From the IMG/VR virus record IMGVR_UViG_2808606954_000002, positions 18,730 through 82,729 of that record: DNA of 64,000 bases; one strand, given 5' to 3'. Every line of letters starts with the position of its first letter. Position 1 is the stretch's first letter. The stretch comes from a virus. Taxonomy: Duplodnaviria; Caudoviricetes. The notes under the pieces are model-generated. The model saw nothing but the letters and a program-made list of their open reading frames with translations. It was not told where the DNA came from and did not search any database. This document shows, in pieces, positions 16,136 through 60,464 of this stretch. A program made the translations under genes and the position numbers.

Positions 16136-16316
16136 TATTTTGAGGTATTGAGATGATAAAATATGCGCGCATACATGCTGGCATTGTCGTCGAGGTGATC
16201 GAGACTGACCACAAGATAGATGATCTCTATCACCCCGATATTGCCGCCTCATTTATGGAGGTGACGGACGATGTTGAGCCGGGCTGGACATATACAGACG
16301 GCAAGTTGGCCGCGCC
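14958..16316 (+). repeat. Direct repeat copy 1 (fibre tip plus 5' end of the next gene)
   Basis: Colinear with 59287-60645 (offset 44,329). Only C15295/T59624, G15313/A59642 and A15857/G60186 differ up to the fibre stop; identity is lower afterwards. Confidence 0.97.
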
Positions 16317-16713
16317 AGTTGTGCCATCAATACCAGCGCCGACGCTGGAAACCGTGCAGGCTGATCTGAAAGCCCGGATTGACAAACTGGCTGAGGTTGA
16401 GCGCCTGAAATACATCACAGGTGGCGTTGGGCAAGCCATGACCTATCAGCAAAAGGCGGCTGAGGCGATTGCCTATCTGGCCGCCACCAATCCGGTCGCC
16501 AAGGATTACCCTCTGCTCAGTGCTGAGGTTGGCCTGACGGGCAAAACATTGTCCGATGTTGCCACCACCGTGAAAGCGGCATTTGAGCAATGGCAGCTCA
16601 TTGGTGCCGCTGTCGAGAAAGTGCGCCTCGGTGCCAAAAAGGCAATTGGCGAGGCAAAAACATCTGAGGCAGCGCAAGCCGTCTTTGATGCTGTGGTCTG
16701 GCCATCGGCTTAA
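16153..16713 (+). CDS. Tail-fibre-associated/assembly protein 1
   Basis: Directly after the fibre; N-terminal ~56 aa homologous to 60482-60937. Confidence 0.65.
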   Translation: MIKYARIHAGIVVEVIETDHKIDDLYHPDIAASFMEVTDDVEPGWTYTDGKLAAPVVPSIPAPTLETVQADLKARIDKLAEVERLKYITGGVGQAMTYQQKAAEAIAYLAATNPVAKDYPLLSAEVGLTGKTLSDVATTVKAAFEQWQLIGAAVEKVRLGAKKAIGEAKTSEAAQAVFDAVVWPSA

Positions 16714-16747
16714 GCCGCTCAGTCATTTGAAAAATTAGGAGTCTTTC

Positions 16748-16969
16748 ATGTTCGTCAACAATTGGCGGCAAGTGCTTAAGCGCGCTTGGTCTGTCCGGCT
16801 GCTTTTGGCTGCTGGTTTCTTCTCCGGAGCTGAAGTCTTTCTGCCGCTCATCGACGGTCACATTGATATGCCGCGCGGCCTGTTTGCTGCCCTGTCCGGT
16901 TTGTCCGCAGCAGGGGCCTTTGTTTCCCGTTTTCTTGCTCAAAAGGATTTATCTGATGCCGATCAATAA
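16748..16969 (+). CDS. Holin/pinholin candidate
   Basis: 73 aa with two hydrophobic segments; NWRQVLKRAWSVR; stop overlaps the endolysin start. Confidence 0.7.
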   Translation: MFVNNWRQVLKRAWSVRLLLAAGFFSGAEVFLPLIDGHIDMPRGLFAALSGLSAAGAFVSRFLAQKDLSDADQ

Positions 16970-17546
16970 GCTTAAAGCCAGTAAGCGCGCAAAAACGGCC
17001 ATTGCTGCAATTGTGTTTGCCGCTGGCACTGGTGGGACAATCGCGCTTTTTCCGGGGCAAGAGCCAGTTCCGGCTGATGTCGCGCTTGCGATTAACGCGC
17101 TGGTAAAGCCGTGGGAAGGTCGCAGCCTCAAGGCTTATTACGATACGCTGCCCACAAGGCCAGTCTGGACGATTTGCGATGGTGATACCGATAACGTCAA
17201 GCCCGGAATGGTGGAAACCCCGCAAGGCTGTGACAAGCGGCTGGCAACCAAGATCGTGCGCGACTATCGCAAGCCTTTGACAGAGTGCATCTCTGGCTGG
17301 GACGGCAAGCCGCTGGCGTGGCGGGCGATGATGATTAGCCTGACCTGGAATATTGGCACCGGCGCTGCTTGCAGATCGACCGCTGCACGGTTGGGGCGCG
17401 AAGGCAAGTATCTGGAAAGCTGTAATGCTGCCACCGCCTTTAACCGTGCCGGTGGCCGCGTCATCATTGGTTTGGCCAAGCGGCGCGAAAACGGTGATGC
17501 GACTCGGATCGGGGAGGGAGAATTGTGCGTCTCCGGCCTGCAATGA
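16956..17546 (+). CDS. Endolysin, GH24 lysozyme family, probable SAR type
   Basis: N-terminal Ala/Gly-rich hydrophobic stretch; WEG..AYYD..WTICDGDT catalytic region; LAKRRE motif. Confidence 0.85.
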   Translation: MPINKLKASKRAKTAIAAIVFAAGTGGTIALFPGQEPVPADVALAINALVKPWEGRSLKAYYDTLPTRPVWTICDGDTDNVKPGMVETPQGCDKRLATKIVRDYRKPLTECISGWDGKPLAWRAMMISLTWNIGTGAACRSTAARLGREGKYLESCNAATAFNRAGGRVIIGLAKRRENGDATRIGEGELCVSGLQ

Positions 17547-18028
17547 GCTTGGTCGCGCTTGCGTTAAGTTGTCGCGGTGTTTTGCTAAAATGGCTGAAAA
17601 CATTTCTGGTCAATCTTTATGGCATGATCGGCATTGCCGGTTTTCTGCTGTTGGCGCTGTTGGTGTTCGAGGAGGGTGTGCCTTTCCTCGGCATCAATGG
17701 CCGGGTTGCCAATCATGCGGCCTCGCAGGTTGAGGCCGCAAAGGCGGGCTTGGTTGCGCAAGCCGATCTGGACGCTGCCAATGCCAAATTGACGGCCATG
17801 ACCTTGCGGTTACAGCAGGCGGAAATGCTGGCCGAACAGGCCCGCGCAATAGGCGAAAACATCATCAAAAAAGAAGGGCAGGTTAATGATGCGCTTAAAG
17901 CATCTGTTTCGGCTGACAATCGCGTTGATGGCGCTCGCTGGTCTGCCTCTGATATTGAGTGGCTGTCTCGCGAACGACAACGCCTCGGCCTCGCTGGCCA
18001 AGGCGGCGGCGCAAAAGGCGGTGGCTGA
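17543..18028 (+). CDS. i-spanin (Rz-like)
   Basis: N-terminal TM followed by coiled coil; after the endolysin. Confidence 0.65.
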   Translation: MSLVALALSCRGVLLKWLKTFLVNLYGMIGIAGFLLLALLVFEEGVPFLGINGRVANHAASQVEAAKAGLVAQADLDAANAKLTAMTLRLQQAEMLAEQARAIGENIIKKEGQVNDALKASVSADNRVDGARWSASDIEWLSRERQRLGLAGQGGGAKGGG

Positions 18029-18236
18029 AACAAAGGTGCCATTGCCGCCCTGGCCTGATTGGTGCAGGCAACACATGCGCCGCATCGTGCCGGTGGCTGG
18101 CGGATCGGCGGCGCATGATCAACTTGGCTGGGAGGTCAGTGCCAACCAGCAGGATGCCCGCACTGATGCGTGTGCGGAAATTTACGACACGCGGCGGGCT
18201 GAGTACGGGGGGGGCGCACATGGCACCGGAAATTGA
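17886..18236 (+). CDS. o-spanin (Rz1-like lipoprotein), overlapping Rz in another frame
   Basis: Signal peptide with LSGC lipobox; Pro-rich segment. Confidence 0.7.
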   Translation: MMRLKHLFRLTIALMALAGLPLILSGCLANDNASASLAKAAAQKAVAETKVPLPPWPDWCRQHMRRIVPVAGGSAAHDQLGWEVSANQQDARTDACAEIYDTRRAEYGGGAHGTGN

Positions 18237-18591
18237 CGCGGGTGTGCACCGGATGCTCGGTGAGCTGGTTGCAGAAATGCGCGGGCTGAAAGAAGACATT
18301 CAGGAAATTCGGGGCGCGCAAGTGCGCTCCGAGGATCGCGCAACCCAAAGCCGGGCGGTTGTGCACCGGCGCATGGATGAAATGGTGGATCGGGTTGGCG
18401 CGCTGGAAACCAACATCACCAATGTGCAGACTGATATTGCTGACATTAAGCCGGTGACCAATGAGGTCAAGCGTTGGAAGCTGATCGGCCTTGGCGCGCT
18501 CGGCATGATTGGCATCGGCGGGATCGCGCTTGGCGTATCCTTTGCTGATGTTTTGAAACGGGTTGGCGGTCTGCTGATTGGTCGGCTCTAG
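18220..18591 (+). CDS. DUF1515-like coiled-coil/TM phage protein
   Basis: RAVVHRRMDE motif and C-terminal TM; last gene of the lysis cassette. Confidence 0.6.
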   Translation: MAPEIDAGVHRMLGELVAEMRGLKEDIQEIRGAQVRSEDRATQSRAVVHRRMDEMVDRVGALETNITNVQTDIADIKPVTNEVKRWKLIGLGALGMIGIGGIALGVSFADVLKRVGGLLIGRL

Positions 18592-18614
18592 CGCATCATC
18601 AGGCAAAAGCAGAT

Positions 18615-18658
18615 AAGGCCGGAAAGTAGAATTCCGGCCTTTGCTTCTTTTCTTTTTT
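18615..18658 (+). terminator. Intrinsic terminator at the end of the late/lysis operon
   Basis: AAGGCCGGAA / TTCCGGCCTT stem followed by a T-rich tail. Confidence 0.75.
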
Positions 18659-18928: not shown

Positions 18929-18961
18929 TCAATATGCATGGTCACACGCAAATGCCATACT

Positions 18962-19000
18962 AAGCCCTGCTTGTTTGTTCAGGCGGGGCTTTTTTTGTTT
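18962..19000. terminator. Probable bidirectional terminator
   Basis: AAGCCCTGCTTG / CAGGCGGGGCTT stem plus T-run, between convergent genes. Confidence 0.65.
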
Positions 19001-19011
19001 TTACGGCTGGT

Positions 19012-19314
19012 TTATCCATCGCGTCTTGCTCTTCCAAGCATAAAGCTGTTTTGCTGCCGATTGCCGCATTTTGCGCAGCGCAGCAGCGGCTCCATCGATA
19101 TGATTGATCTGGCTTTGTGTTTGCGTTGCAGCTCCCAGCGATCCAAAGGCGAGGTATGGTCGCATCGCGCGCATTTCGCAAACAGGTTATACCATTGGGG
19201 CAGGTCTGCCAGCGTGGCGGAATGGTCGCGCTCCGGCACGATGATGCCGGTGGGCCTAGGTGGCAGGTTGTCGTTGCTGCTGCGGGTTAGGTCTAAGCCT
19301 CGACGATGCCGCAT
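19012..19314 (-). CDS. Small Zn-binding hypothetical protein
   Basis: 100 aa with CARC and CAKC motifs. Confidence 0.65.
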   Translation of the reverse strand: MRHRRGLDLTRSSNDNLPPRPTGIIVPERDHSATLADLPQWYNLFAKCARCDHTSPLDRWELQRKHKARSIISMEPLLRCAKCGNRQQNSFMLGRARRDG

Positions 19315-19347
19315 ATCGCCATCCTCTGGTTTTCACGCTTGACATTT

Positions 19348-19362
19348 GTTCTTAAAATGTTC
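19348..19362. promoter_or_regulatory. Alphaproteobacterial LexA (SOS) box
   Basis: GTTCTTAAAATGTTC = GTTC-N7-GTTC, just downstream of TTGACA (19339-19344), between divergent genes. Confidence 0.75.
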
Positions 19363-19404
19363 TCATTTTAAGAGGGTGTCAAGGCGGTGAATTTTGAGGT
19401 TGCG

Positions 19405-19746
19405 ATGACGGGCTGGTATGAAAAAAGACTGCATTGGGAAAGGTCGCGTCCCGGCGAAATCGACCCACACACGGGCACTTTTTACGAGGATTATGTTGCT
19501 TGGTATGATGGACGGCAAGCGGGCCGGATCACGCTGGTCCTTGGCAATATTATGGGTGAAACCTCGTGGCGCTGGTCGGGTGGTTACCCGGCGGGGTATC
19601 GCGGCAAGCCGCTAATGCCAAACACGGGTTATGTTGAAACGGCAAACCAAGCCTGTCGGATGGCTGAAGAGTATTGGTTTGCAATGCTGGCGGGTTGCAA
19701 ACCGGCAACGGATGATGATCGGCTCGGTCAGGGCGGCGCTGATTGA
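19405..19746 (+). CDS. Hypothetical protein (Trp-rich), probably SOS-controlled
   Basis: ORF divergent from 19012-19314 across the LexA box. Confidence 0.6.
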   Translation: MTGWYEKRLHWERSRPGEIDPHTGTFYEDYVAWYDGRQAGRITLVLGNIMGETSWRWSGGYPAGYRGKPLMPNTGYVETANQACRMAEEYWFAMLAGCKPATDDDRLGQGGAD

Positions 19747-19751: not shown

Positions 19752-20960
19752 TCAACCATGCTGCCTCCCCTCCCCTTCTCCGTTTTGCTTCAACAGCGCC
19801 ATCAGTACCGGCCCCAGCGAGAACTCGCCCGCCTGCGCCTTGGCGGTCAGGCTGCGCAAATAGCCGCCCGCAGAATTGATCTGCCCTGCCCGCTCTAAAA
19901 TACAGGCCATGGTTATCGCAGCAGCCTCCGGCCCCATGGCCTCGCAGGCCTGCTGATAGGCCGATGGGCTGACGCCAAGCATGGACCGCACCACCACGGC
20001 GGCCGCCATCAGATCGCGCCAACCGGATACCGCGCCGCCCGGTCCATAATCGCCGATCTGCGGGCAGGCTTTCAACACCATGCTTAAGGGGTAGGTTTCC
20101 GGCTTGCGCTGTTTTGCCGGTTCCAGCCGTGCCGGTTCCGCCATCATATTTTCTTGGCCGTTTAATTCAAATTCATAGGTAGATTCGGTATTTGAATTCT
20201 GTATGTGTGCGTCATTGTGGTTGGCATTGGTGGGCATTTTTTCGGATTTTAATTGCATTTCCAGCCGGTTAACGACCTCTTCGCGCAAAAGCTCCATCTC
20301 GTCGCGGATCTCCATCACCTCGCCCATGGTGGGGCGGCGCGGCAAGCGGGCGAGAATGCTGATATAATGGTCCTCGGCTGCGGACCAATTGCCCTCGGCC
20401 CCCTCCTCAATGGCGGCGGAAATCAGCTTGCGCACATCGCGGCGGCAAATGGTGAGCGCTTCCTTTGCGCGTTTATAGGCGCGGGCCTCATCGGCCACGG
20501 CTTGCGCAAGCTGGGCCAGCTCACCCGCGCGAATAAGCAGCGGTGCCAGGCTAAAGCCGAAAGCGGCTTCAATCTCACCTGCCCGGTCGCGGTGGGCGTA
20601 GCGCTTGCCGTTTGGGCTATCGCGGCGCTCAATCAACCCCGCCTCAACCAAGGCCGCCAAGGCCCGGCGCAATGTGCTGCCTGATATGCCATGCGCGCGG
20701 ATGGAAAGCTGTGCGTTGCTTGGAAACACAACAAGCCCCATGTCCTCGGAAAGTTCGGTTTCAGGATAGAAGCTCAACAGCGCATTTAAAACCGCCATGG
20801 CTCTATCTTGCAGGCCAAGCTTTTCGCGCGCTTCGCAAGCATCACGAAACACCCGCCATTTATCCACCGCCCTGCCCGGCTTTGCTTCGGCCCGTTCCAT
20901 CTGGCCTTTCACCAAAGCAAGCTTCGCCGGTCGCCGCCCAAACGGCGTCGTGATCTGCAT
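19752..20960 (-). CDS. repC: Plasmid replication initiator RepC
   Basis: MQITTPFGRR, LVFPSNAQLS, RRDSPNGKRY, FGFSLAPL and INSAGGYLR motifs; AT-rich internal tract at about 20140-20260 (RepC origins lie inside repC). Confidence 0.97.
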   Translation of the reverse strand: MQITTPFGRRPAKLALVKGQMERAEAKPGRAVDKWRVFRDACEAREKLGLQDRAMAVLNALLSFYPETELSEDMGLVVFPSNAQLSIRAHGISGSTLRRALAALVEAGLIERRDSPNGKRYAHRDRAGEIEAAFGFSLAPLLIRAGELAQLAQAVADEARAYKRAKEALTICRRDVRKLISAAIEEGAEGNWSAAEDHYISILARLPRRPTMGEVMEIRDEMELLREEVVNRLEMQLKSEKMPTNANHNDAHIQNSNTESTYEFELNGQENMMAEPARLEPAKQRKPETYPLSMVLKACPQIGDYGPGGAVSGWRDLMAAAVVVRSMLGVSPSAYQQACEAMGPEAAAITMACILERAGQINSAGGYLRSLTAKAQAGEFSLGPVLMALLKQNGEGEGRQHG

Positions 20961-21029
20961 ATGGGTCATTGCTTCCTTCACCTTTCAAAAGGCAAAAGAA
21001 ATCCGCTCACCAAATGGCGTCAAAGACTC

Positions 21030-21058
21030 TTGACTATGATTCTTGGAAATGCGATTCT
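21030..21058 (+). promoter_or_regulatory. Promoter of the repABC counter-transcribed RNA
   Basis: TTGACT-ATGATTCTTGGAAATGC-GATTCT closely resembles the conserved ctRNA promoter of repABC replicons. Confidence 0.8.
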
Positions 21059-21064
21059 CTAACT

Positions 21065-21118
21065 GCTTACATCAGAGAGGGCTTCCACGGTTCGCCGTTT
21101 GGGGGCCTTTTTCTTTTT
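21065..21118 (+). ncRNA. repABC antisense ctRNA (incA/repE type); ends approximate
   Basis: Lies in the repB-repC spacer, antisense to the operon; GGCTTCC..GGGGGCC hairpin followed by a T-tract. Confidence 0.8.
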
Positions 21119-21123
21119 GCCGG

Positions 21124-22104
21124 TCAGTTTCCTTTGTTAAACTCGTCGTACAGTTCTGGCATGCGCGTCATCAGATACTCTGCAAACGCCTCATTTTGAG
21201 TCCTGTCAATCTCAATCCTGCATTGTTTGCCTCTGAGCGCCAAGGATGCAATCTCTTGCCCGTCGCGGCTTTTGGCAATTTGTGGGGCCTCGCTCTTTGT
21301 GGCGGGCCGCTGCTTGGCAGATGCAAGCGCGGCCTTGAAGCGGTCATCTGACGATTTATGCGCAAAGGTGCTGTCTTGCGTGGCCTTGCGCACTTGCGGC
21401 TCAACCGTGCCTGATTTGAGCAGATCGGCCAGCTCTTGCCAGCGCGGGCGGCCAATCTTTGGCGCGGGGCCAATGGCCTCAATCAGCCATTGCGGCACGA
21501 CCGCAGCCACGGCAATCAGCTTTGCCGCCTCGGCCCGATCCACCGCCAAAGCCGCCTGAATGTCAGACCGCTGAAAACCCGCGCTCTCCAGCCGGTGCGC
21601 AAAGGATGCGCGCTCAATAAAGCTTAAATCCTCACGCGCCGAATTTTCCACGCCTTGCGCGATTATCAGGCTTTGGTCATCCAGATCACGCACATAGGCT
21701 TTAACCGGGATGCCTAGCTCTCTAGCTGCCTGCGCGCGGCGATGGCCGTACGCAATCTGGTAGCGGCCTTGTGCGGTTGGGTGCGGGCGCACAAGGATGG
21801 GGATTTCCTGGCCATTGTCTGACAGCGATTGCTTAAGCTGTTCAAGGGCGGCTTTGTTGCCCGATGCCAAGCGATCCGCAAAAGGTGAGGGGTCCAGATG
21901 GGCGGGGTCCAAATCAGCGGCCTGCCCACCTTGCGCAAGCAAGCGGCGCAACTCTTCGTTTTCGGCCTCGATGCTGGTGAGTGAGCCTTTCATGGCCTGC
22001 ACCGCGCCGCTTGCCACGCGCTTTGATGTGGGACGGGCTTGCGGCTCTGTGCCTTCGTCGCCAGCCTTGAACATGCCGCGAATAGAATTCATGCGCGAAC
22101 TCAT
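21124..22104 (-). CDS. repB: Plasmid partition protein RepB (ParB family)
   Basis: GQEIPILVRPHP, YQIAYGHRR and ENSAREDLSFIERA motifs. Confidence 0.95.
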   Translation of the reverse strand: MSSRMNSIRGMFKAGDEGTEPQARPTSKRVASGAVQAMKGSLTSIEAENEELRRLLAQGGQAADLDPAHLDPSPFADRLASGNKAALEQLKQSLSDNGQEIPILVRPHPTAQGRYQIAYGHRRAQAARELGIPVKAYVRDLDDQSLIIAQGVENSAREDLSFIERASFAHRLESAGFQRSDIQAALAVDRAEAAKLIAVAAVVPQWLIEAIGPAPKIGRPRWQELADLLKSGTVEPQVRKATQDSTFAHKSSDDRFKAALASAKQRPATKSEAPQIAKSRDGQEIASLALRGKQCRIEIDRTQNEAFAEYLMTRMPELYDEFNKGN

Positions 22105-22121
22105 TGGCCTGCCCCTTTCAT

Positions 22122-22139
22122 TGTTGTCAGCTGACAACA
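22122..22139. promoter_or_regulatory. parS centromere-like site
   Basis: Perfect palindrome TGTTGTCAGCTGACAACA matching GTTNNCNGCNGNNAAC, in the repA-repB spacer. Confidence 0.85.
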
Positions 22140-22168
22140 TATCAAGTGTTTGATTTTATTGATGTGGG

Positions 22169-23386
22169 TCATTTTTTGCGACCCCACACCGCCTCGATCA
22201 TGTCAATCACTTCATTGTTGACGGCATTGATTGACTCCATGGCGCGCTCATAGACATTGCGGCCCACGGTGCCAGAGGTCAGCTCATAAAGCGACTGTTT
22301 GGTCAGGCCAGCGTTGGCGATGGCGGTGGATTTCCACGCGGTCGCAGTCATCACATCCTGCCCGAATACATCACGCAACAGCGAAACAATCTCTTGCTCT
22401 GGCACGTCGCGCGGGTCGTGGCGGGTCACCAAAAATCGCATGAAATCATAATCCAGCGCGCCGCCCGCCTCCTCAATCACGGCCACAAGGTCAGAGGTCA
22501 TCAGCAAAAACTGGCTCATGGATGCCACATCAACCATTTGCGGGTGCACGGTCACAATCATGCCGGTTGCGGCATTCAGTGCGCCCATGGTCAAAAAGCC
22601 AAGCTGCGGCGGGCAATCAATCACCACCACATCAAAATCGTCTTCGACCTCGGCAATGGCCGATGCCACGCGCCGAAAGAAAATATCGTGCGGGTTGCCG
22701 CGATTTTGCATCATGTAGCGCGGTGTCTGGTGTTCAAATTCCATCAGCTCCAGATTGCCCGGCACGATGCTAACGCCGGTAAAATAGGTGGGCCGGATAA
22801 TGTCACGCATTTTCACGCGCTCGTCGTCGTAACGAATGGCCGCGTAAAGAGTGCTATTTTCCGCAACGTCAAATTCTGGCTGATAGCCAAACATGGATGA
22901 TAAGGACGCCTGCGGGTCCAGATCGATCGCAAGAACACGCAAGCCTTGCAAGGCCAGCCCTTGAGCCAGATAAAGCGATGTGGTGGTTTTGGCAGACCCG
23001 CCCTTGAAATTGGCAACCGTGATGATTTGCAGCTTCTCACCGACCCGGCGTTGCGGCCAAAATTTCAACGCCTCTTTTGGCCGCGCCTCGGCCAGATAGG
23101 CGCGCAGCTCCATCACCTGGTCCAGCGTGTACGCGCGCCGCCCGGCCCGGCCAATCTCTGGCGCTGGGCCTAAGCCGTCCAGCGAGAGCTGACGCAAATA
23201 GCCGTCCGACACATTGACAATGTTTGCAACCTCGCCACTGGTGAAAGAGCGCAAGGTTTTTTGCGCCGATGGCGGAAAGGCGCGCTCACCAACGGCCCGC
23301 AAGCGCGCAGAAAGCGCCTCGGCGCGCTCGGTGATTTTCGATGCCGTGCTCATAGCTTGCGTACTCTCTACAGCGCTCATTTTCAT
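22169..23386 (-). CDS. repA: Plasmid partition ATPase RepA (start codon uncertain)
   Basis: NFKGGSAKTTT, IDLDPQASL and IDCPPQLG motifs; N-terminal HTH. Confidence 0.97.
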   Translation of the reverse strand: MKMSAVESTQAMSTASKITERAEALSARLRAVGERAFPPSAQKTLRSFTSGEVANIVNVSDGYLRQLSLDGLGPAPEIGRAGRRAYTLDQVMELRAYLAEARPKEALKFWPQRRVGEKLQIITVANFKGGSAKTTTSLYLAQGLALQGLRVLAIDLDPQASLSSMFGYQPEFDVAENSTLYAAIRYDDERVKMRDIIRPTYFTGVSIVPGNLELMEFEHQTPRYMMQNRGNPHDIFFRRVASAIAEVEDDFDVVVIDCPPQLGFLTMGALNAATGMIVTVHPQMVDVASMSQFLLMTSDLVAVIEEAGGALDYDFMRFLVTRHDPRDVPEQEIVSLLRDVFGQDVMTATAWKSTAIANAGLTKQSLYELTSGTVGRNVYERAMESINAVNNEVIDMIEAVWGRKK

Positions 23387-23497
23387 CTCAGACGTTTCTA
23401 GCTCGTTAAACGCATTATTTCCGTTTTCAAAATGCACACGATTCTAATGTGGTTGCAAGATGTTTTTCGTAAATGAATGGTAAACGCATTGATTTGA

Positions 23498-23541
23498 CAT
23501 GAAAAAGCCGCCTCAAAGGGCGGCTTTCTCTGTTTTGGGGC
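23498..23541 (+). repeat. 44-bp direct repeat / terminator, copy 1
   Basis: CATGAAAAAGCCGCCTCAAAGGGCGGCTTTCTCTGTTTTGGGGC, identical to 24880-24923. Confidence 0.95.
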
Positions 23542-23550
23542 GTGTGCCCG

Positions 23551-23976
23551 TTAGGCGGCTTGGCGAACTGACAAGACAATCTCTTGGCCAAGGGCCTCAA
23601 GCGCATCGGCCATAACGCCGATTTTAGAAGCGTGATCGGGGTCCAGTAACCGGCGCGCTTCATTTTCTGTTTTGCCAATGCGGCGCGCCAATTCCGTTTT
23701 TGAAATCCCCGCCTCATTGAACGCCTGGATCAGTGCAAGCTTTGCCGCCACATCGGCCACGACCGCAATGTCGTGGCCTTCCTGTGCCACAGGGGCGGGC
23801 AGGGGGCGGCCTTCCTGCATGATACCGCGCAGGGCAAGGCCAAGGGCTTCTCTGGCGCTTGCTACGGCTTCCTTCATTGTTTCCCCGTGGGTGATGGCCT
23901 CTGGCACATCGGCAAAGGTCACCACAAAGCCGCCGTCCGGATCTGTCTCAATTGTTGCTTTATAAGTGTATTGCAT
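23551..23976 (-). CDS. hicB: HicB-family antitoxin with C-terminal HTH
   Basis: GGFVVTFADVPEAITHGET..EA and KTELARRIG motifs. Confidence 0.9.
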   Translation of the reverse strand: MQYTYKATIETDPDGGFVVTFADVPEAITHGETMKEAVASAREALGLALRGIMQEGRPLPAPVAQEGHDIAVVADVAAKLALIQAFNEAGISKTELARRIGKTENEARRLLDPDHASKIGVMADALEALGQEIVLSVRQAA

Positions 23977-24034
23977 AGGTTGATGCCTTCTTTGTCACTT
24001 GATGATGATGATGTGGAATGAGGCGGGCTTGGCA

Positions 24035-24229
24035 TCATTTGATGCCAAGCTGTTTCTTGATAAGGCCTACATAGAGCGGGGTCATTTCGCCGGATTTTAT
24101 CGTGGTCGATTTTCCGTTGAGTGTTACCCGATAGTGAGAGCCTTTCCCGTTGTCTTCGAAAACCTCAAATTCCCAACCGTTGGATTTTGCTATTTTGCGA
24201 AGCTCTCTGAGAAGTTGTTCTCGCTTCAT
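24035..24229 (-). CDS. hicA: HicA-family toxin
   Basis: 64 aa; MKREQLLRELRK..GKGSH motif; SD AAGGAG upstream; precedes hicB. Confidence 0.88.
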   Translation of the reverse strand: MKREQLLRELRKIAKSNGWEFEVFEDNGKGSHYRVTLNGKSTTIKSGEMTPLYVGLIKKQLGIK

Positions 24230-24576
24230 TTCCTCTCCTTTCCTGCAATTATGTATCGCACATTTTTGTGCGTATTGCAAATAAAATCGCACAAATTTGT
24301 GCGTTTTATTTTGAAGAAAATGAGGGTGCCCCAGTATGCAGGCCAAGATTATCGCACTCCGACTGGCGTATTCATCTGCTCCACTGCCAATCGCGATCAG
24401 CGACAGAAAATTTCTGTTGCATCCATAAGGGAGGCAAGCTATTTTAGGAACAAGGCGTATTCTGAGTAGGTCACGAAACCGAAATTTTGAGCCCGTTCGA
24501 CGAACCTATGATCCCACGTTAGAGGGAGATTACGGTTCGTCCGTGTCTCCTGCTGTTTATTTATAAGGAGATACGC

Positions 24577-50745: not shown

Positions 50746-50801
50746 TCCGGTCGGGCAGCATTCGTGCTGCCTTCTTTCTCAATTTGTTAAAGAGGTGAAA
50801 A

Positions 50802-51170: not shown

Positions 51171-51179
51171 GGCAAGCCG

Positions 51180-53913: not shown

Positions 53914-53925
53914 AAAAGGTGAAAA

Positions 53926-55164
53926 ATGGCGCGTGATTGGTCGTCAACCCTTTGGCCTGCCTCGTTCATGGGCTTCCCGTTTCATGTGAGCCGGGATGAT
54001 CGGCAAGGCAAGCGGCGTTTAGTGGTGCATGAATTGCCACTCAATGATGTGCCGCTCATACAGGATATGGGGGCGGGTGCGACCAAGATCACGGTTGACG
54101 CCTATTTTCTGTCTGATAGCGCGGATGCACAAGCCAAGGCCTTTGAGGCCGTCTTGAAAGCGGGCGGGGTGGGGCCTCTGTCCCTGCCAACGCTTGGCAT
54201 CAAAAGCGCACGGGCGGAAGAGTGGAAGCCGTCCTTTGATGCGGAGAGGCTCGGCTATATCGGCTTTTCCATCACCTTTGTGCTTGATCCGGGTGGTTCG
54301 GCGCTCGGAAGTATCTTTTATGCGGTCGCGGAAATTTTCGCGGCGGCGGAAGGTTTGGCAAGTGTTGCAGGTGCCGTGATTGGCGCGCTGGAACTGGTCG
54401 GGCATATCGGCTCGGTGGTTGGTGCTGCGCAATCGGCGTTTGAAACCAGCCTTGCCACACTGTCAGTTATTTCAACGTCTGAAACTGTGAAAACGGACAC
54501 GCTGGCCACATTTAATTCCGGCTTGCAGACGCTCTATAATTCCACGGCCATCGGCCTGACTGCTTCGGGCGTTGACGGTGATCTTGGATCGTCGCTTGTT
54601 GATCTCGCGCGGATGCTTGGCGACGGCATGGGGGCCGATGATGCCGCCCGCGCTTTTGGCGCGTTGCTGGATAGTGAGCCAGCGTCAACGCTAACGGGGT
54701 CTGTGGCTGCGCTATCCTCTGCGCAACCATGGCTTGGCACGGTTGCGCAGCAGGCCATAAATCGCAATGCGGCGCGGTTTGATCTGGCGTTAAAACTTGC
54801 AGCCCTCGCGGCCTACGCGGAGGCAATCGGCAGGCAGGAATTTGCAAGTCGGCCTGAGGGTATCAATGCGCGGGCGCTGATGGCTGAGAGGCTGGATATT
54901 GCCCTTGCGGCGGCGGAAGGTGCGGAAATGGTCGATGTTTATGCGGCCATTGAAAGCCTGCAAGGGCAGTTGGCCGATTATCTGTCACGCAAAATCATCA
55001 CGCTTGCCCCGGTTGTTACGGTCACGGCGAATGCCAGTGTGCCAGCGCTGGTATGGGCTTGGCGGCTTTATGCCGATCCGGCGCGGGCTGATGAGCTGGT
55101 GGCGCGAAACAAGGTGATCCATCCTCTCTTTATGCCTCAAAATTTTGAGGCTCTGGAATCCTGA
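53926..55164 (+). CDS. Mu gpN-like DNA circularisation protein
   Basis: LWPASFMGFPFHV, RRLVVHE and LYADPARADEL..N..HPLF motifs. Confidence 0.9.
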   Translation: MARDWSSTLWPASFMGFPFHVSRDDRQGKRRLVVHELPLNDVPLIQDMGAGATKITVDAYFLSDSADAQAKAFEAVLKAGGVGPLSLPTLGIKSARAEEWKPSFDAERLGYIGFSITFVLDPGGSALGSIFYAVAEIFAAAEGLASVAGAVIGALELVGHIGSVVGAAQSAFETSLATLSVISTSETVKTDTLATFNSGLQTLYNSTAIGLTASGVDGDLGSSLVDLARMLGDGMGADDAARAFGALLDSEPASTLTGSVAALSSAQPWLGTVAQQAINRNAARFDLALKLAALAAYAEAIGRQEFASRPEGINARALMAERLDIALAAAEGAEMVDVYAAIESLQGQLADYLSRKIITLAPVVTVTANASVPALVWAWRLYADPARADELVARNKVIHPLFMPQNFEALES

Positions 55165-55166
55165 AA

Positions 55167-56246
55167 ATGATCAGTCTCGGCAATGCAGCCGCCCAGGCCA
55201 TAACGGTCACTGTGGGCGGCAAAACCTATGGCGGCTTTACCCGCGTTTCGGCCTCGGCCTGCCTTGATAAAGCGGCGCGGACATTTCAGCTCGTGGTGGC
55301 TGGTGAGCTGAATACTGTTGCAACAGCACGGCAATTTGCGGCGGGTACGCCGGTTGTCTTGCGCTGCAATGGAGAGGTGTGGCTGACGGGCTATGTTGAC
55401 TCTTATCGACCTCGGATAAGTGGTCGTGAGGCCTCGGTGTCGATTGCGGGTCGCTCAAAAGCGGCAGATGCGATTGACAGTGCTGTGGTGGATAAAACCA
55501 CGGGCTTTCAAGGCAAAACGCCTGTCGAGATTGCCAAGGCGCTCGACAAATTTGGCATTGGTTTTAAAGCCGTAGATGCCATGGAGGCCGTGCCGCGCTT
55601 TCACGTCACGCCGGGCGAAACCGTGTTTCAGGTTGTGGAGCGGCTGGCGCGTGATCAAGGCTATACGCTGCGCGGATTGGCGGATGGCGGCATTGAATTT
55701 TGGAACGCCAAAAAGACCACGAAGCGGCAGGCCGGGCCACTGATACAGGGCCTCAATATCCTGTCCGCAGATGCGGACCACAATTGGAGCCGCCGTCACA
55801 GCCATTACCATGTGCGCGGGCAAAGCGCCCATGGCATGGATAGTCACGCCACGGAAATGCAGGCGGTGGCGAAAGATGGCTCTGTGCAGCGTTATCGCCC
55901 AACCATGATCAATTGCGAAAACGACACCGATATCGGGCGTGTGCGCAAGCGGGCAACTCATCACCGCAACACGCGGGCAGGCCGCTCTCTCTCGGCCAAT
56001 ATTGAGGTGGTCGGCTATGTCGATCCGGGTGGCAAACTGTGGGAATGCGGCAATCTGGTTTACGTGGAAAGCCCTTTTTTAAACCTGCAACAAGACATGT
56101 TGATTGAGCAGGTCACAATCCGCGAAGACGGCGGCGGCATGACCACAAGCCTCTCGCTTTGCGACCCTGCTGCCTATTCCGGCAAAAAGCGCAAGGCCAG
56201 CAAAAGCGGCGGCGAATGGGCTGCTGAGAATGAGGAGGCAGAATGA
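55167..56246 (+). CDS. Baseplate hub (Mu gpP/gp44 family)
   Basis: GRSKAADAIDS, PGETVFQ and RYRP motifs. Confidence 0.85.
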   Translation: MISLGNAAAQAITVTVGGKTYGGFTRVSASACLDKAARTFQLVVAGELNTVATARQFAAGTPVVLRCNGEVWLTGYVDSYRPRISGREASVSIAGRSKAADAIDSAVVDKTTGFQGKTPVEIAKALDKFGIGFKAVDAMEAVPRFHVTPGETVFQVVERLARDQGYTLRGLADGGIEFWNAKKTTKRQAGPLIQGLNILSADADHNWSRRHSHYHVRGQSAHGMDSHATEMQAVAKDGSVQRYRPTMINCENDTDIGRVRKRATHHRNTRAGRSLSANIEVVGYVDPGGKLWECGNLVYVESPFLNLQQDMLIEQVTIREDGGGMTTSLSLCDPAAYSGKKRKASKSGGEWAAENEEAE

Positions 56247-56674
56247 ACCTTTTTCGGCGTGGCGTCCTCTCAGGTATTGATGTTTCCGGTGGTCAGCATC
56301 TGGCCAACCTCAAGGGATTTTACAACGAGGAGCTTGTGAATGTCCCGCGAATAAAAGAGTTCGGCTTTTCATCCAGCCCGCCTGCGGGTGCGACTGCGCT
56401 CATCATGGCCCTGAATGGGCGGGCTGACAATGCCATGGTGATGGGGCTGGATCACGGCAGCCACGGGCCGCGTGATTTGGGTGCTGGCCACACTGCCATT
56501 TACGATGCTTACGGCAATGTTGTGTCGTTGGTGCAGAACAAAGTCAGGATCGTCACGGCGGGGGCTATTGAGCTTGTCTCGGCCTCACTCACCCACAATG
56601 GCGTCAATATTGGCGCAACCCACGTCCACGGCGGCATCGTCAAGGGCGGAAGCGATACGGCGGTGCCACATTGA
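56243..56674 (+). CDS. Baseplate spike (gp45 family)
   Basis: EFGFSSSPP motif and HVHGG tip. Confidence 0.85.
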   Translation: MNLFRRGVLSGIDVSGGQHLANLKGFYNEELVNVPRIKEFGFSSSPPAGATALIMALNGRADNAMVMGLDHGSHGPRDLGAGHTAIYDAYGNVVSLVQNKVRIVTAGAIELVSASLTHNGVNIGATHVHGGIVKGGSDTAVPH

Positions 56675-57186
56675 TGTTGCGGGTGAGGATTAATGAGAGT
56701 GCGCGGACACAACCCGCGCTGCTGTGGGATACCGCGTGGGATGCTGCTGCGCGGTCTGGCAATTGGGTGCTTGTCGGTGGTGGTTTGCAGGCTGACAATC
56801 AGCTCCAAACCGCTGTTGTGTTGGCACTGTTTACCGACAGGCGCTGCCCACCTGATCACCCCTTGGCAAAATATGTCGAGGATGGTGACTTGCGCGGTTG
56901 GTGGGGCGATGGCGTGGATGTGCGCTCCGATCTGAGCGAGACGGAAATGGGGTCTTTGCTTTGGCTGCTGGAGCGCATGCCCCTCACCGATCAAACTGTG
57001 ATGTGGGCGCAAAGCCTTGCCGCTGAGGCGGTGCAGCCGCTTGTTGATCAGGGGGCTGTCGCAAAGGCTGTGGTGACGGCTGAGAAGGCCGATCACCGCA
57101 TCAATCTGGCCATCAATCTCTATGCGCGCGACGGCTCAAAAGCCTTTGCGCAACAATTCGACGTTTATTGGCGCTCGATCGGATAG
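56674..57186 (+). CDS. gp46-like baseplate protein
   Basis: LFTDRR, RGWWGD and GSLLWLLER motifs. Confidence 0.88.
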   Translation: MLRVRINESARTQPALLWDTAWDAAARSGNWVLVGGGLQADNQLQTAVVLALFTDRRCPPDHPLAKYVEDGDLRGWWGDGVDVRSDLSETEMGSLLWLLERMPLTDQTVMWAQSLAAEAVQPLVDQGAVAKAVVTAEKADHRINLAINLYARDGSKAFAQQFDVYWRSIG

Positions 57187-57189
57187 ATT

Positions 57190-58305
57190 ATGCTTACAAT
57201 TCCATCACTTAGCGAACTGGCCGAACAGATGCGCCAGAAGTTTCGCACTTATCTGCCCGGCTCTGATGCGTGGGTTTGGCCCAACAATGTCGGGGTCACG
57301 GCCAAGGTTTTGGCAGGGGGCTTGTATGCCCTGTATGCCAAGCTCGAATATGTCGAGCGGCAAGCCTTTGTGGTGACGGCTGAGGGTGAATATCTTCAGC
57401 GGCATGGCTCGGCGGTTGGTGTCAATATCCGGGCGGCATCACAGGCAAGAGGAAAAGTTGTCGTCACAGTGGATGGCGCAGCCTCTCTTGCGGCGGGCGC
57501 GATCCTTCAGCGTTCGGACGGTGTGCAGTTTTCGGTTCTGTCGGCTGATGCTCTGTTGGCGGCTGGAAATATGACTGTGCCTGTGCAGGCCCTGCTGGGT
57601 GGCGCAACAGGCACCACGCTTGCGGGCACTGGTTTGACCATTGTGTCAGGCTTGACCTTTGTGAGTGGCAGCGGTGTTGCAACAGCGGCGGTTGATGCAG
57701 CTGGCCTATCAGGCGGCTCGGATGTTGAGGATGTTGAGACTTTTCGCGCGCGAATCCTGTTTCGCAAGCGCCACCCCTATTCGGGTGGTGCTGCGGCGGA
57801 TTATGTCAGCTGGGCCATGAATGTGCCGGGCGTTACGCGAGTCTATGTTGAGCGGTTGTGGGCTGGCCCCGGAACCGTGCGCGTTTTCCCGGTCACGGAT
57901 GGTTTGACGCCGGGCGGTATCCCGTCGGCGGCAACGCTAAAGGCGGTCGAAAATGCGATAGCCCTTGAAGCACCGGCTGGTGCTGCGGTGACGGTTGCGG
58001 CTCCCACGCCAAAGACAATCAATCTGACAATCACCGATCTCCAGCCGTCCACCACGGCGGTGCAAGAGGCTGTGAAATCTGCGCTGGCGCAAGGCCTCAT
58101 AGATCATGGCGCGATTGCCGGATCGGACACGCCTGTCGCGGGCATGGATTTTCTGGCAACGCCGCGCAGCTTTTCGCGCTCATGGCTGTGGCAGGCTGTG
58201 GCCAATGCCAGTGGCAGTCAAAGGCATGTTCTGACGGTTCCGACTGCGGATGTGCCTTTGGCGGTGGGTGAAATGCCAGTGCTTGGCACAGTTAATTTTG
58301 CGTGA
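57190..58305 (+). CDS. Baseplate J-like protein (gp47)
   Basis: AEGEYLQRHG and GGAAADYVSWA..VPGV.R motifs. Confidence 0.9.
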   Translation: MLTIPSLSELAEQMRQKFRTYLPGSDAWVWPNNVGVTAKVLAGGLYALYAKLEYVERQAFVVTAEGEYLQRHGSAVGVNIRAASQARGKVVVTVDGAASLAAGAILQRSDGVQFSVLSADALLAAGNMTVPVQALLGGATGTTLAGTGLTIVSGLTFVSGSGVATAAVDAAGLSGGSDVEDVETFRARILFRKRHPYSGGAAADYVSWAMNVPGVTRVYVERLWAGPGTVRVFPVTDGLTPGGIPSAATLKAVENAIALEAPAGAAVTVAAPTPKTINLTITDLQPSTTAVQEAVKSALAQGLIDHGAIAGSDTPVAGMDFLATPRSFSRSWLWQAVANASGSQRHVLTVPTADVPLAVGEMPVLGTVNFA

Positions 58306-58311
58306 GGTGCT

Positions 58312-58935
58312 ATGGCTCAAGGTAACATATGCCCCGGCCTTGATGAGCTGATGCAAAGCCTTCTGGCTCTTTTGCCGCGTGGTCGCGCCTGGGGTGATAA
58401 CCACGCTGACACCTCACCGATTTATCGCTTCTGGCGATCCGTTGCCGCCTGCTTTTACGATTGGGAATTGCTGGCTTGCGCGTTGATTGAAGAGTTTTTC
58501 CCGTCAACCGCAAGAGCAACGCTTGACCTTTGGTATGCCGATTATGGTTTGCCAGATGGTTGCGACCCATACCCCAATCTCGTCGCCAAAGTGCGGGCGG
58601 CGGGCGGCTCAACATGCAGTTATTTTCAGGCCGTTGCTGCGGCGGCGGGCTGGTCCATTGCCTGTATGGCAGATCAAACACAGAGTGCTGGCCTTGCGTC
58701 AGCAGGTTGTAGTCAGGTGGGGCAAGGCATCCCGGCCTGTACATTGCTGATCCGCGTTTATCTTTCGCAGTCCCGTGCTTACAACGCGGCCAGCACACAG
58801 CTTGCAGCCATTGCTGGCTCAAATTGGACCGTCGGCGGCACACTTGGCTGCGGTCCCGATCTTACCCCCCTTTTTTGCCTGATGGCGCGGATGATACCCG
58901 CCCATCTGGCCGTTATCTATGAGGTTGTACCATGA
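58312..58935 (+). CDS. gp48-like baseplate protein
   Basis: LLALLPRGRAW, W.ADYGLPD.C and IPAH motifs. Confidence 0.85.
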   Translation: MAQGNICPGLDELMQSLLALLPRGRAWGDNHADTSPIYRFWRSVAACFYDWELLACALIEEFFPSTARATLDLWYADYGLPDGCDPYPNLVAKVRAAGGSTCSYFQAVAAAAGWSIACMADQTQSAGLASAGCSQVGQGIPACTLLIRVYLSQSRAYNAASTQLAAIAGSNWTVGGTLGCGPDLTPLFCLMARMIPAHLAVIYEVVP

Positions 58936-60464
58936 CGGATATTCTTGGTCCCGGCTCCAATGCCATGAATGTGGTAACAAGCCGCCCGGACGATAAGCGG
59001 ATAATGGGCCTGACAGACACCTGGTTCAAAAACTGCTCAAGCCCGGCGAATAACGATGGCACACGCATTGATGCCGACTGGCTGAATGGGCTGGTCGCAA
59101 ACCTGCGCGCGTTGGTGCGAAATTCAGGTGTAACGGTTGATCCGCTTGCAGACGATATGTTGTGGCAGGCACAAAAATTCTGGCTCGACAAAAAGGTTGA
59201 TATTGATCGCAAGGCCACAACTGACCAAACAGGCATTGTTGAGCTGGCAACCATCCCTGAAGCCAAAGAAGGCAAGAATGGACAGTTGGCTGTGACGCCA
59301 CCCGGTCTTGTCGCAACAATCGCAGACATCATGCCACCGAGGCCGAACCTGTGCCCGAACGGCGGGTTTGAGGATGGGCTTGCCGGGATTGAGTCGTTCA
59401 GCAACGGCGTCGCAAAAAGCTTTACAGTGTCAGATAACATGTGGGGCAGGAATCTTGTTGTATCCGGGCCGCATGCAGATGGTTGGACATCTATCGTATG
59501 GCCTAAATTCGCTGTAACTCCCGGTCTTGCTTATACAATCTCTGGTGACGCGGCTTTTTTTGCGGATGCCGGGACCGTTAAATACGAATTAATTTGGTAC
59601 AGGGCCGATGGTACGGACTTAGCTTTCAGCGGCGGGGTGAAACGCGGCACGGGCGATTTCGGTTACGCATCATCCGCACGTCAAGCCATGGCCATTTCGG
59701 TTGTCGCGCCTGCCGGAGCAGTAACAGCAAGACTAAGCTGTGTTTTCGAAAACGTAAAAAACGCAACAGTTATGTGCGCGCGGCTGGCCAAAGTCGAGTT
59801 TGGCCCGCTGCCAGCTACCGCTTATACGCCACCTACGGGTAAGTCTCGGCAGCCAGCGCTCTACACCTATGTAAACAGCGGCGTGTTTACAGCCCCAGAA
59901 GGTGTCTATTTCGTGCACCTGCGCGCTTGGGGTGGCAGCGCAGGTGGTGGCGGTGCTGGGCCAAATGGTGCAGGCGGAGGCGGCGGAGGCGGCGGTTATG
60001 CTGAGGGGATCGTAGCTGTTGTGCCGGGTCAAACATACCTGATCACGATTGGTCAAGGCGGCGCGGGCGGCGCAGCGGGTGGCGGCAAAGGCGGAGATGG
60101 TGGCACAACGTCATTTGGCTCATTGTTGACCGCAACGGGTGGCCTTGGCGGTTACGGCGCGGCCAGTGGCTATGCAAATGGCGGCGCTGGAGGTGTCGGT
60201 GTGGGCGGGCAAATACAGGTGCCTGGTCAGGCCGGACAGCGCTCTATTGCGCAACGAGACCCCATCAATGGCGACGGTATTGTTTGGGTTGGTGGCCCAG
60301 GCGGCGGGGCATTTGGGTCCGGCTCTACGCACATGCTCTATGGTTCATCCTCTGGCTGGGCCGGTTGGTCGTATGGCACCGGCGGATCAGGCGGTGCGGG
60401 CGACGGCACGAACGGTTATGCGGGTGGCGTTGGACCGTCTGGCTTCCTCGCAATCGATTTTTGA
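58932..60464 (+). CDS. Tail fibre 2 (own N-terminus, tip shared with fibre 1)
   Basis: From LAVTPPGL onward identical to fibre 1 except one T/A residue. Confidence 0.88.
   Translation: MTDILGPGSNAMNVVTSRPDDKRIMGLTDTWFKNCSSPANNDGTRIDADWLNGLVANLRALVRNSGVTVDPLADDMLWQAQKFWLDKKVDIDRKATTDQTGIVELATIPEAKEGKNGQLAVTPPGLVATIADIMPPRPNLCPNGGFEDGLAGIESFSNGVAKSFTVSDNMWGRNLVVSGPHADGWTSIVWPKFAVTPGLAYTISGDAAFFADAGTVKYELIWYRADGTDLAFSGGVKRGTGDFGYASSARQAMAISVVAPAGAVTARLSCVFENVKNATVMCARLAKVEFGPLPATAYTPPTGKSRQPALYTYVNSGVFTAPEGVYFVHLRAWGGSAGGGGAGPNGAGGGGGGGGYAEGIVAVVPGQTYLITIGQGGAGGAAGGGKGGDGGTTSFGSLLTATGGLGGYGAASGYANGGAGGVGVGGQIQVPGQAGQRSIAQRDPINGDGIVWVGGPGGGAFGSGSTHMLYGSSSGWAGWSYGTGGSGGAGDGTNGYAGGVGPSGFLAIDF

Follow-up and report, generated by a model that had tools for sequence, protein, structure and literature searches.

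A candidate repABC phage-plasmid, a lambda-sized myophage nested within a Mu-like prophage of a rhizobial genome

The stretch of DNA considered here (the window, 64,000 nt) comprises bases 18730-82729 of IMGVR_UViG_2808606954_000002, an IMG/VR record of 82,729 bp that is listed as a provirus. The window contains two distinct myophages rather than one circularly permuted genome. The first, phage 1, is a Mu-like transposable prophage. The second, phage 2, is nested within the first, bounded by a direct repeat, and joins a myophage gene set to the replication and partition genes of a repABC plasmid. I propose phage 2 as a candidate repABC phage-plasmid, which either exists here as a phage-in-phage cointegrate or was only put together as one by the assembler. 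Positions 16346-60674 (or any 44,329-bp frame between the repeats) are probably the full genome of a temperate myophage, maintained by repABC and integrated by a crossover at the tip of its tail fibre. What is new is the host group, the 44-kb backbone with a lambda-type head and a Mu-type tail, the canonical cassette with its RNAs, and the nesting within a Mu-like prophage.

The repeat is the key to the arrangement. Copy A (14909-16345, + strand) and copy B (59238-60674, + strand) each encode the C-terminal tip of a tail fibre and the start of a chaperone gene. They are 1,437 bp long, align without gaps at 96.8% identity, and lie in the same orientation. A core of 1.18 kb (14958-16136) is about 99.8% identical, with exact runs of 337, 543, and 279 bp, and identity falls off on either side of it. 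In protein terms, the fibre C-termini of the two phages are 96% identical over 419 aa. The fibre assembly chaperone of copy A (16153-16713, +; phrog_32459 and phrog_8983) is 78% identical to that of copy B (60482-60937) over the first 74 aa only, and the two C-termini are unlike. Apart from the fibre C-terminus and those 74 aa of the next gene, the structural proteins of phages 1 and 2 proved only 26-29% identical in an all-against-all comparison. Circular permutation of one genome is ruled out: these are two distinct phages that have only the fibre tip in common.

An earlier reading, made from the sequence alone, had placed the phage unit at 16153-59286 and had counted the flanking tail module as part of the same phage. 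Bases 1-16135 belong instead to the Mu-like phage 1, which that reading did not recognise, and the unit is defined by the repeats, with a period of 44,329 bp. The gene order that it obtained by circularising does hold for the repeat-bounded 44.3-kb unit. Circularising works because a direct repeat bounds the segment, not because the window wraps round a circle.

The overall order is: host DNA, the left part of the Mu-like prophage, the N-terminus of fibre A, repeat copy A, and then phage 2, with its lysis cassette, repABC, early genes, late genes, and the N-terminus of fibre B; next come repeat copy B, the right arm of the Mu-like prophage, and finally tRNA-Met and host DNA. This is the product to be expected if a 44.3-kb circle and a Mu-like prophage had undergone one homologous crossover. 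The flanks of the two repeat copies were assigned by comparison with Agrobacterium vitis S00303 (genome G001; contigs C2, C12, C15, and C24). On contig C12, the 3' end of a B-type chaperone gene is joined directly to a homologue of window 61860-62030, which is followed by an element 96% identical to positions 64116-64190, directly beyond the window. The DNA downstream of copy B is therefore Mu-type, and contig C24 likewise supports this. Contig C2 carries a distant prophage that is not Mu-like (gpA terminase 28% identical, sheath 42%, and an integrase that precedes the terminase by about 17 kb). The genes after its fibre are homologues of window 16848-18591 (56-76% identical in amino acids, 80% in nucleotides), and a D12 methylase follows them. 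Since this lysis cassette stands after the fibre of the C2 prophage, and since phage 1 has an M15 peptidase of its own, the DNA downstream of copy A is of the phage 2 type.

The repABC cassette is canonical, with both S-element and ctRNA. Its genes are three consecutive intact open reading frames (ORFs) on the minus strand, running from 23437 down to 19752 in the operon order repA-repB-repC. The first, repA (22169-23437, -), encodes a ParA-type ATPase (PF13614, PF01656) with an N-terminal MerR-like helix-turn-helix (HTH). Next is repB (21124-22140, -), of ParB type (PF07506 and PF02195; RepB/ParB_N), and last is repC (19752-20969, -), encoding a replication initiator of 405 aa (RP-C/RP-C_C; PF03428 at 4e-66, PF11800 at 8e-43). 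The S-element, the leader of repC (20967-21035, -), ends on the repC ATG and matches Rfam RF00490 at 69.2 bits (gathering score 47; E 7e-11). The antisense ctRNA, the incompatibility RNA, occupies the spacer between repB and repC on the opposite strand (21076-21120, +) and matches RF00489 with an E of 2.7e-6. Both RNAs have the positions and strands expected for repABC. A parS-like palindrome, GTTGTCAGCTGACAAC, lies within repB (22123-22138) and is a perfect match to GTTNNCNGCNGNNAAC. With up to one mismatch allowed, that pattern is expected to occur 2.7 times by chance, and the weight of the match rests on its position and its perfection. In repABC plasmids the origin is expected inside repC, and an AT-rich patch within this repC, at about 20112-20290 (codons ~230-290; GC 0.40 per 150 nt, compared with 0.596 for the gene), is consistent with such an internal origin.

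Next to repABC is a hicBA toxin-antitoxin module (23466-24923, -), bracketed by two 76-nt repeats that are 87% identical, each with a terminator hairpin. It consists of hicB (23551-23976, -; PF15919) and hicA (24035-24229, -; 64 aa), the latter recognised by a weak match to PF07927 (E 1e-4), below the Pfam cut-off. No insertion sequence or transposase was found beside the repABC-hicBA block.

Where did the cassette come from? From 19756 to 23525 it is 82.3% identical in nucleotides, end to end (3,778 bp), to the repABC of an A. ampelinum plasmid. The contig with that plasmid cassette, NBZE01000003.1, carries a relaxase of the MobA/TraI type and a hicAB upstream of repA, the latter having no DNA homology to the hicAB of the window. 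The next RepC relative (85% identity) is on another relaxase-bearing contig, from A. vitis. The hicAB-repABC block of NBZE01000003.1 is flanked (at 6295-6704 and 11584-11855 of the examined stretch) by phage-type pieces 72% identical to window 61975-62383, within a small ORF, and to 61266-61537, within a D12 methylase gene, which are neighbours in the window. This suggests that the repABC lineage was earlier embedded in phage-type DNA. Phage-derived flanks around the same lineage on an ordinary plasmid also hint at the conversion of a phage-plasmid to a plasmid.

Phage 2 shows no integration module. In a six-frame search of the 82.7-kb record with hidden Markov models of tyrosine integrases and of the catalytic and recombinase domains of serine recombinases (PF00589, PF00239, PF07508), no match appeared at E<=1; control genomes did yield matches in the same search. 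This is the profile search for which the sequence-only reading had called, having itself recognised no recombinase, and it bears that reading out. PHROG scans of the unannotated early ORFs gave no integrase, excisionase, or transposase families, and the MuA of phage 1 is the sole transposase found in the record. The pair of features by which an integrative lambdoid prophage is recognised, an integrase and an att border repeat, was not found.

The slot in which an integrase would be sought is filled. It lies between the late/lysis end and the early-left operon, and repABC with hicAB occupies it, as the sequence-only reading had said. On one side, an ORF of the phage family phrog_12188 stops 6 nt short of the repC stop codon. 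On the other, beyond hicAB, the early-left operon begins at once. In relatives of the phage, the slot equivalent to that of repABC/hicAB, at the end of the provirus, is taken up by an integrase, as it is in the Mesorhizobium 'plasmid' MesoLjLa5. I searched the 20 IMG/VR records with a related terminase (28-68% identity) and found RepC in none of them and tyrosine integrases in ten, mostly at the end of the record. No available relative of the backbone carries repABC, and the closest counterparts of the cassette belong to ordinary mobilisable plasmids of Allorhizobium; I therefore take repABC to be an acquired module, in the slot where relatives hold int or another plasmid system.

The phage gene set of phage 2 is full, with packaging, head, tail, lysis, immunity, replication, and antitermination genes on the same element as those for plasmid replication and partition. 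The terminase encoded between the two fibre repeats is of the gpA kind, the portal of lambda type, and the baseplate of Mu type. Starting from copy A, the lysis cassette (16729-18642, +) has a lysozyme gene (16863-17546, +; PF00959, phrog_7 endolysin), a further ORF (17525-18028, +), and a gene for a DUF1515 protein (17959-18591, +; PF07439), and it ends in a terminator (18615-18641). It is 80% identical in nucleotides to the region after the fibre of the gpA-terminase prophage on contig C2 of A. vitis S00303. Between the terminator and repC are two small phage-type ORFs (18938-19746, +), the second of which, at 19387-19746, is the one matching phrog_12188.

Beyond repABC and hicBA, the early-left operon and immunity region (24987-35229, -) encode a MazG-like protein (25047-25973, -), DUF5131 (25892-26983, -), proteins matching phrog_874 and phrog_10379, an HTH protein (32221-32604, -), and a cI-like repressor with HTH and S24 domains (within 32614-34047, -). 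Judged by eye, the repressor ORF of 477 aa was probably called too long, the protein itself having about 229 aa. In the shorter frame, 32614-33300, the S24 serine motif is present as GQSMEP. The early-right operon (35265-39585, +; phrog_799, phrog_757, phrog_270) has two DNA methyltransferase genes, a gene for an O-like replication initiator (37575-38966, +; phrog_270), and one for a NusG paralogue (within 38647-39585, +; PF02357). The presence of an O-like initiator argues that phage 2 has a lytic replication system distinct from repABC. P1 and N15 likewise hold lytic replication apart from plasmid replication. The repCBA and hicBA genes, the cI-like repressor, the replication gene, and NusG, all named by the sequence-only reading, were thus identified by their domains, subject to the weakness of the hicA match given above.

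The late operon (39992-59237, +) runs from the terminase to the N-terminus of the fibre. It includes the gpA terminase (41260-43452, +; PF05876/PF20454), the lambda-type portal (43713-45290, +; PF05136), a ClpP-capsid fusion (45196-47262, +; PF00574+PF25209), a cement protein (+; PF09956), the sheath (49207-50745, +; PF04984), the tube, and the tape measure. The Mu-type tail and baseplate domains are DNA_circ_N, GpP, Gp45, GP46, Baseplate_J, and Gp48. The fusion joins a head protease of the ClpP family and the major capsid protein (Phage_capsid_4) in one ORF of 688 aa, and the relative whose terminase is 72% identical has the same protease-capsid fusion, of 674 aa.

How might such an element live? 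I suggest that the maintenance block of repABC and hicAB replaces the integrase/att module. RepC would initiate at an origin within its own gene, RepA, RepB, and parS would partition the copies, and the ctRNA and S-element would set a low copy number. Lysogeny would depend on the cI-like repressor to silence the lytic genes, on repABC to copy and partition the circle once per cycle, and on hicAB to penalise its loss. On induction, the O-like initiator and the NusG-type antiterminator would drive lytic replication and late transcription, after which the gpA terminase would package from cos. In the assembly the 44.3-kb circle is not free: it interrupts the tail-fibre/chaperone region of a Mu-like prophage already resident there. 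The most economical entry would be one RecA-type crossover between the near-identical receptor-binding tips, and another such crossover could undo it. Given a real cointegrate, both partners would be set free by recombination between the repeat copies. A composite of about 86 kb is not packageable as a Mu genome by the headful mechanism of the Mu type.

It is tempting to go further and to see in this a regular switch, in which a phage with no recombinase of its own passes reversibly between a free low-copy plasmid and an integrated state by RecA crossover with a co-resident Mu-like prophage through a near-identical, recently exchanged fibre tip. I consider this unlikely as the evidence stands. 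If it were true, host-range modules common to unrelated phages would double as 'portable att sites'.

Several observations weigh against the proposal that 16346-60674 is a repABC-maintained phage genome integrated at the fibre tip. The sequence-only reading had taken absence of repABC from close relatives of the phage backbone as the mark of a late, unrelated insertion, and absence is what was found: neither the 20 IMG/VR records nor pAtCFBP5507b nor MesoLjLa5 has repABC, and the association is known from one genome. Phage 2 was assembled within a contig of 568,017 bp, not as a circle, and is not extrachromosomal there. Of the sequence-only reading's temperate myophage of about 44 kb living as a unit-copy repABC plasmid, the gene content and the cassette hold good, and the free plasmid is not what the assembly gives. 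The match of the ctRNA, at 39.2 bits, is under the Rfam gathering score of 50. The cI-like repressor seems, as judged by eye only, to have Gly at the position of the expected S24 catalytic Lys (EASVGIFV), and may be incapable of self-cleavage. The Mu-like prophage has been given only provisional ends, and a 75-nt 'end' proposed for it (described below) is found also, without Mu genes, in another genome (G002, contig C39). Finally, the exact runs within the repeat, up to 543 bp, exceed the length of short reads, and a short-read assembler may therefore have had no direct evidence for the two joints.

The last point opens the way to the alternative that fares best, that phage 2 is a free circular plasmid of 44.3 kb, that the Mu-like prophage is intact, and that the 'cointegrate' is the path of an assembler through the repeat. 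A circle and a chromosome sharing one repeat give the same assembly graph as a cointegrate, and all three exact runs of the core are longer than short reads. An independent Logan assembly of the same strain breaks here, its contig _381 beginning inside chaperone B. Without the insert, moreover, the Mu-like prophage would be about 41.5 kb (taking its provisional ends), near the size of a typical Mu-type genome. Yet the two assembled copies of the repeat retain their own variants within the core, suggesting that they were phased and not collapsed, and the 568-kb contig passes through both. I regard a free plasmid as possible though somewhat doubtful. It would differ from the integrated phage-plasmid proposed here in the state of the element and not in its genes, and on both accounts the unit can be read as the circular genome of a phage-plasmid.

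A fossil is distinctly improbable. In this account, a plasmid or phage-plasmid recombined into the prophage and is now fixed there, and repABC, phage 2, or both no longer serve a phage-plasmid. It would fit an element embedded in a large contig and known from one instance, a composite of 86 kb beyond the reach of Mu-type headful packaging, and a repressor that may be non-cleavable. Against this, no ORF inspected, whether in repABC, in hicAB, or in the phage modules, is truncated or lacks the domains expected of it, and the regulatory RNAs are conserved. The core of the repeat, still about 99.8% identical, points to a recent event and to possible excision by recombination.

It is very improbable that repABC is the replication module of a large replicon of the host, plasmid or chromid, flanked by chance by two unrelated prophages. 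repABC does usually maintain large rhizobial replicons, the contig is 568 kb long, and the nearest cassettes are on ordinary plasmids. Against this, phage genes come within 6 nt of the cassette at its repC end and within about 100 nt at its repA end, and the cassette lies within a repeat-bounded unit of 44.3 kb, itself inside a Mu-like prophage. Furthermore, A. vitis S00303 has the same flanks and a homologous Mu-like prophage, and its repC homologues (68%) are on other contigs.

Least credible is the converse nesting, in which an integrated phage 2 would have been the target of transposition by the Mu-like phage, with ends AAAGC|TG...CA|AAAGC and the right end at window 18605: a 5-bp direct repeat does surround TG...CA in an element of 35,554 bp, and homology to the S00303 Mu-like prophage begins 37 nt from the proposed left end, but the two ends have no 8-mer in common, the 'right end' is 14 nt past the DUF1515 stop with the 80% homology to contig C2 crossing it to 18642 (for which reasons these ends were rejected), the Mu-like phage would be left with two lysis cassettes and phage 2 with none, and nothing would account for the 1.4-kb repeat that borders the 44.3-kb unit on either side.

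The surroundings of the two phages identify the host. By exact matches of proteins, the IMG/VR record sits within NCBI contig VIVD01000003.1, the contig of 568,017 bp, of assembly GCA_007993855.1. To the left of the phage region are host genes for YjbQ, GGDEF-EAL, HNOB, LysR, and LysE proteins, and to the right are tRNA-Met and genes for SIMPL, porins, EamA, and a MocR-type regulator. This regulator shares 82% identity with its counterpart in A. vitis S00303 and 79% with the one in a Rhizobium metagenome-assembled genome, and the host is therefore a relative of Allorhizobium/A. vitis. The tRNA-Met gene lies 32 nt past the right border of the prophage region. As an attB it was ruled out, no repeat of the tRNA 3' end occurring in the record or the left flank.

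Phage 1 extends from the start of the record to about 16 kb of the window, with its early region, including MuA and MuB, upstream of the window. A transposable phage needs no integrase. Its early genes are those for an S24 repressor, a Ner-type HTH protein, a MuA of 694 aa (DDE_2, Mu-transpos_C), MuB, and GemA, and after these come an M15 peptidase, Mu Gp27, Portal_Mu, Mu_F, the Mu protease, gpT, and then the tail. The Pfam families that mark a Mu-like phage are present (PF02914, PF09299, PF09077, PF06252, PF06074, PF04233, PF10123, PF10124). The M15 peptidase (PF13539) is at the usual Mu position and is apparently part of phage 1's own lysis cassette. The late region within the window (1-14908, +) encodes the gpT head protein, sheath, tube, tape measure, baseplate, and the N-terminus of the fibre, with matches to Mu-like_gpT, Phage_Mu_Gp36, sheath, DNA_circ_N, GpP, Gp45, and GP46. 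A search of PLSDB with the Mu-like tail region (9200-16720), at the DNA level in distant mode, gave no match.

The homologous Mu-like prophage of A. vitis S00303 is at the same host locus (left flank on C15, right flank on C24), and its early genes are 80-89% identical in nucleotides. In both species the prophage lies between the YjbQ/GGDEF genes and tRNA-Met, the host genes being 75-79% identical. A common locus is unexpected for a phage that inserts by transposition.

Beyond copy B lies what is probably the right arm of the Mu-like prophage (60675-64000, +). It comprises the C-terminus of chaperone B, a D12 adenine methyltransferase gene (61071-61889, +; PF02086), a small ORF, and cargo ORFs of low GC (62575-63501 and 63503-64000, +; GC 0.45). 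The two cargo ORFs (308 aa and at least 165 aa) match no Pfam family, stand at 45% GC amid surroundings of about 57%, and are situated between the methylase and the right border. They are missing from the homologous arm in S00303, and a motif, GCGTCT(T)CAAATGG, occurs on either side of the low-GC patch. Directly beyond the window comes a 75-nt element (64116-64190) with three TTCCGG motifs, ending in GCTACA, and then tRNA-Met. Copies of this element, 95-96% identical and with sharp borders on both sides, occur on contigs C12 and C24 of S00303 and on contig C39 of G002, where it precedes a homologue of the lysis cassette and no Mu genes adjoin it. The element may represent either the end of a Mu-type phage or a promoter/operator cassette; neither an inverted left partner nor a 5-bp target duplication was found for it.

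At the left border of the prophage, at about 365.5-366.3 kb of the contig, two copies of a non-coding element of about 420 bp stand in tandem. One copy, 85% identical, is found in the same relative place on contig C15 of S00303. The element may be the left-end region of the Mu-like prophage, and no inverted match between it and the right end was found. Also near this border (contig 366.4-370.1 kb; record 1-1700 and beyond), between the repressor gene and the border region, are genes for an AAA_23 ATPase (639 aa) and then for proteins with MC5 and CTD9 domains. This three-gene cassette looks like cargo of a defence type. The prophage of S00303 has about 1.1 kb of unrelated DNA in its place.

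Phage-plasmids have been well studied in enterobacteria and lately in marine Roseobacter. In Rhizobiaceae, only one lineage has been described so far, of RepC phage-plasmids of about 120 kb. Phage 2 is something else, a myophage the size of lambda with a textbook repABC, ctRNA and S-element included, in the slot of the integrase, as read from the sequence of a single genome. If it lives as I suppose, it would tie phage lysogeny to the incompatibility system of symbiotic, Ti, and other plasmids, and a lysogen could displace resident repABC plasmids or be excluded by them. The nesting by way of a receptor-binding tip would be a concrete case, albeit in one genome, of a phage-plasmid recombining with another phage and would offer a route of integration that needs no integrase.

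How does phage 2 compare with known systems? P1 and N15 are temperate, lysogenise without integrating, and have their own replication, partition, and addiction modules, all as proposed for phage 2. Their hosts are enterobacteria and their replicons (RepA/ParAB/Phd-Doc in P1; RepA/SopAB/protelomerase in N15, which is linear) are unrelated to repABC.

The sequence-only reading knew of no characterised example of its proposal, yet RepC or repABC phage-plasmids have already been published (PMC5537653, PMC12509600, PMC10090143), and phage 2 is another example of phage-plasmids. The Roseobacter phage-plasmids of 40-50 kb, of the type of Tritonibacter mobilis A3R06, carry 'ParABS and RepABC' systems (PMC10090143), with plasmid backbones and phage modules freely recombining (Shan et al. 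2023, PMC10090143). Like phage 2, they are alphaproteobacterial, temperate, and 40-50 kb in size, with replication/partition and toxin-antitoxin genes and a C1-type repressor. Unlike it, they are closed circular plasmids, whereas phage 2 was assembled inside another prophage. The A3R06 element itself has parAB and a P4-type primase, a different phage backbone, and a host in the Rhodobacterales.

Closer in host are the RepC elements of Rhizobiaceae for which plasmid lysogeny has been proposed, as here for phage 2: pLM21S1, RHEph10, RHph_N1_10, RHph_X66, B1VFA, and V1VFA-S. A relative of RHEph10, pLM21S1 (117.5 kb) has been described as a plasmid-like prophage that has a system of the RepC type (PMC5537653). 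B1VFA and V1VFA-S encode parA, parB, and repC, and are proposed prophage-plasmids described as siphophages (PMC12509600). Among GenBank phages, RepC was found only in this RHEph10/B1VFA lineage of 115-122 kb (about 29% identity), a few short fragments without annotation aside. Phage 2 is not a member of the RHEph10/pLM21S1 type, which has another backbone, 115-122 kb in length, and a RepC 28.6-29.7% identical; phage 2 is a myophage of 44 kb, with a cassette 82% identical to that of an ordinary plasmid. The ordinary plasmids in question, those of Allorhizobium/A. vitis (NBZE01000003.1, VOLL01000024.1, and the 98-kb NZ_CP081839.1), match it at 82% in nucleotides over the cassette and 85-86% in the RepC protein. 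Relaxases are among the plasmid genes that they carry, and the 21 kb seen include no genes for phage structure.

A scan of IMG/VR, limited to a pattern, brought up only three records with a canonical RepC (46-48% identity). In two, IMGVR_UViG_2900261899_000001 (105 kb) and IMGVR_UViG_3300021060_000011 (125 kb), DUF5131 is followed by repA-repB-repC in the same order as in phage 2, and in one of these there is a baseplate gene, too, along with a distant gpA terminase. Both may be counted as further candidate repABC phage-plasmids.

For the phage backbone, the nearest terminases on record are at most 72% identical and mostly metagenomic, and the best in a sample of 401 genomes of the host's family is 45% identical. 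Scans of viral contigs and genome contigs with single proteins gave no close relative of the terminase or of RepC. The sequence with the 72% terminase ends 2 kb upstream of the terminase gene, that with the nearest DUF5131 (67%) ends short of the maintenance slot, and there is no relative above 72% terminase identity by which the acquisition of repABC might be dated. MesoLjLa5 (56.7 kb; terminase 44%) has the same architecture plus an integrase. The most telling comparison is with pAtCFBP5507b of Agrobacterium salinitolerans (NZ_CP109971.1), a circular plasmid of 46,243 bp with no tyrosine integrase annotated. It resembles phage 2 in its gpA terminase (44% identity), portal, ClpP protease, contractile tail, NusG paralogue, pair of XRE repressors, and DUF5131. 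It differs in the P2-type order of its tail module and in having ParA with a small partner, a resolvase, and BrnT in place of repABC/hicAB. pAtCFBP5507b is a circle with the same type of backbone, and therefore lysogeny as a plasmid already occurs in phages of this type.

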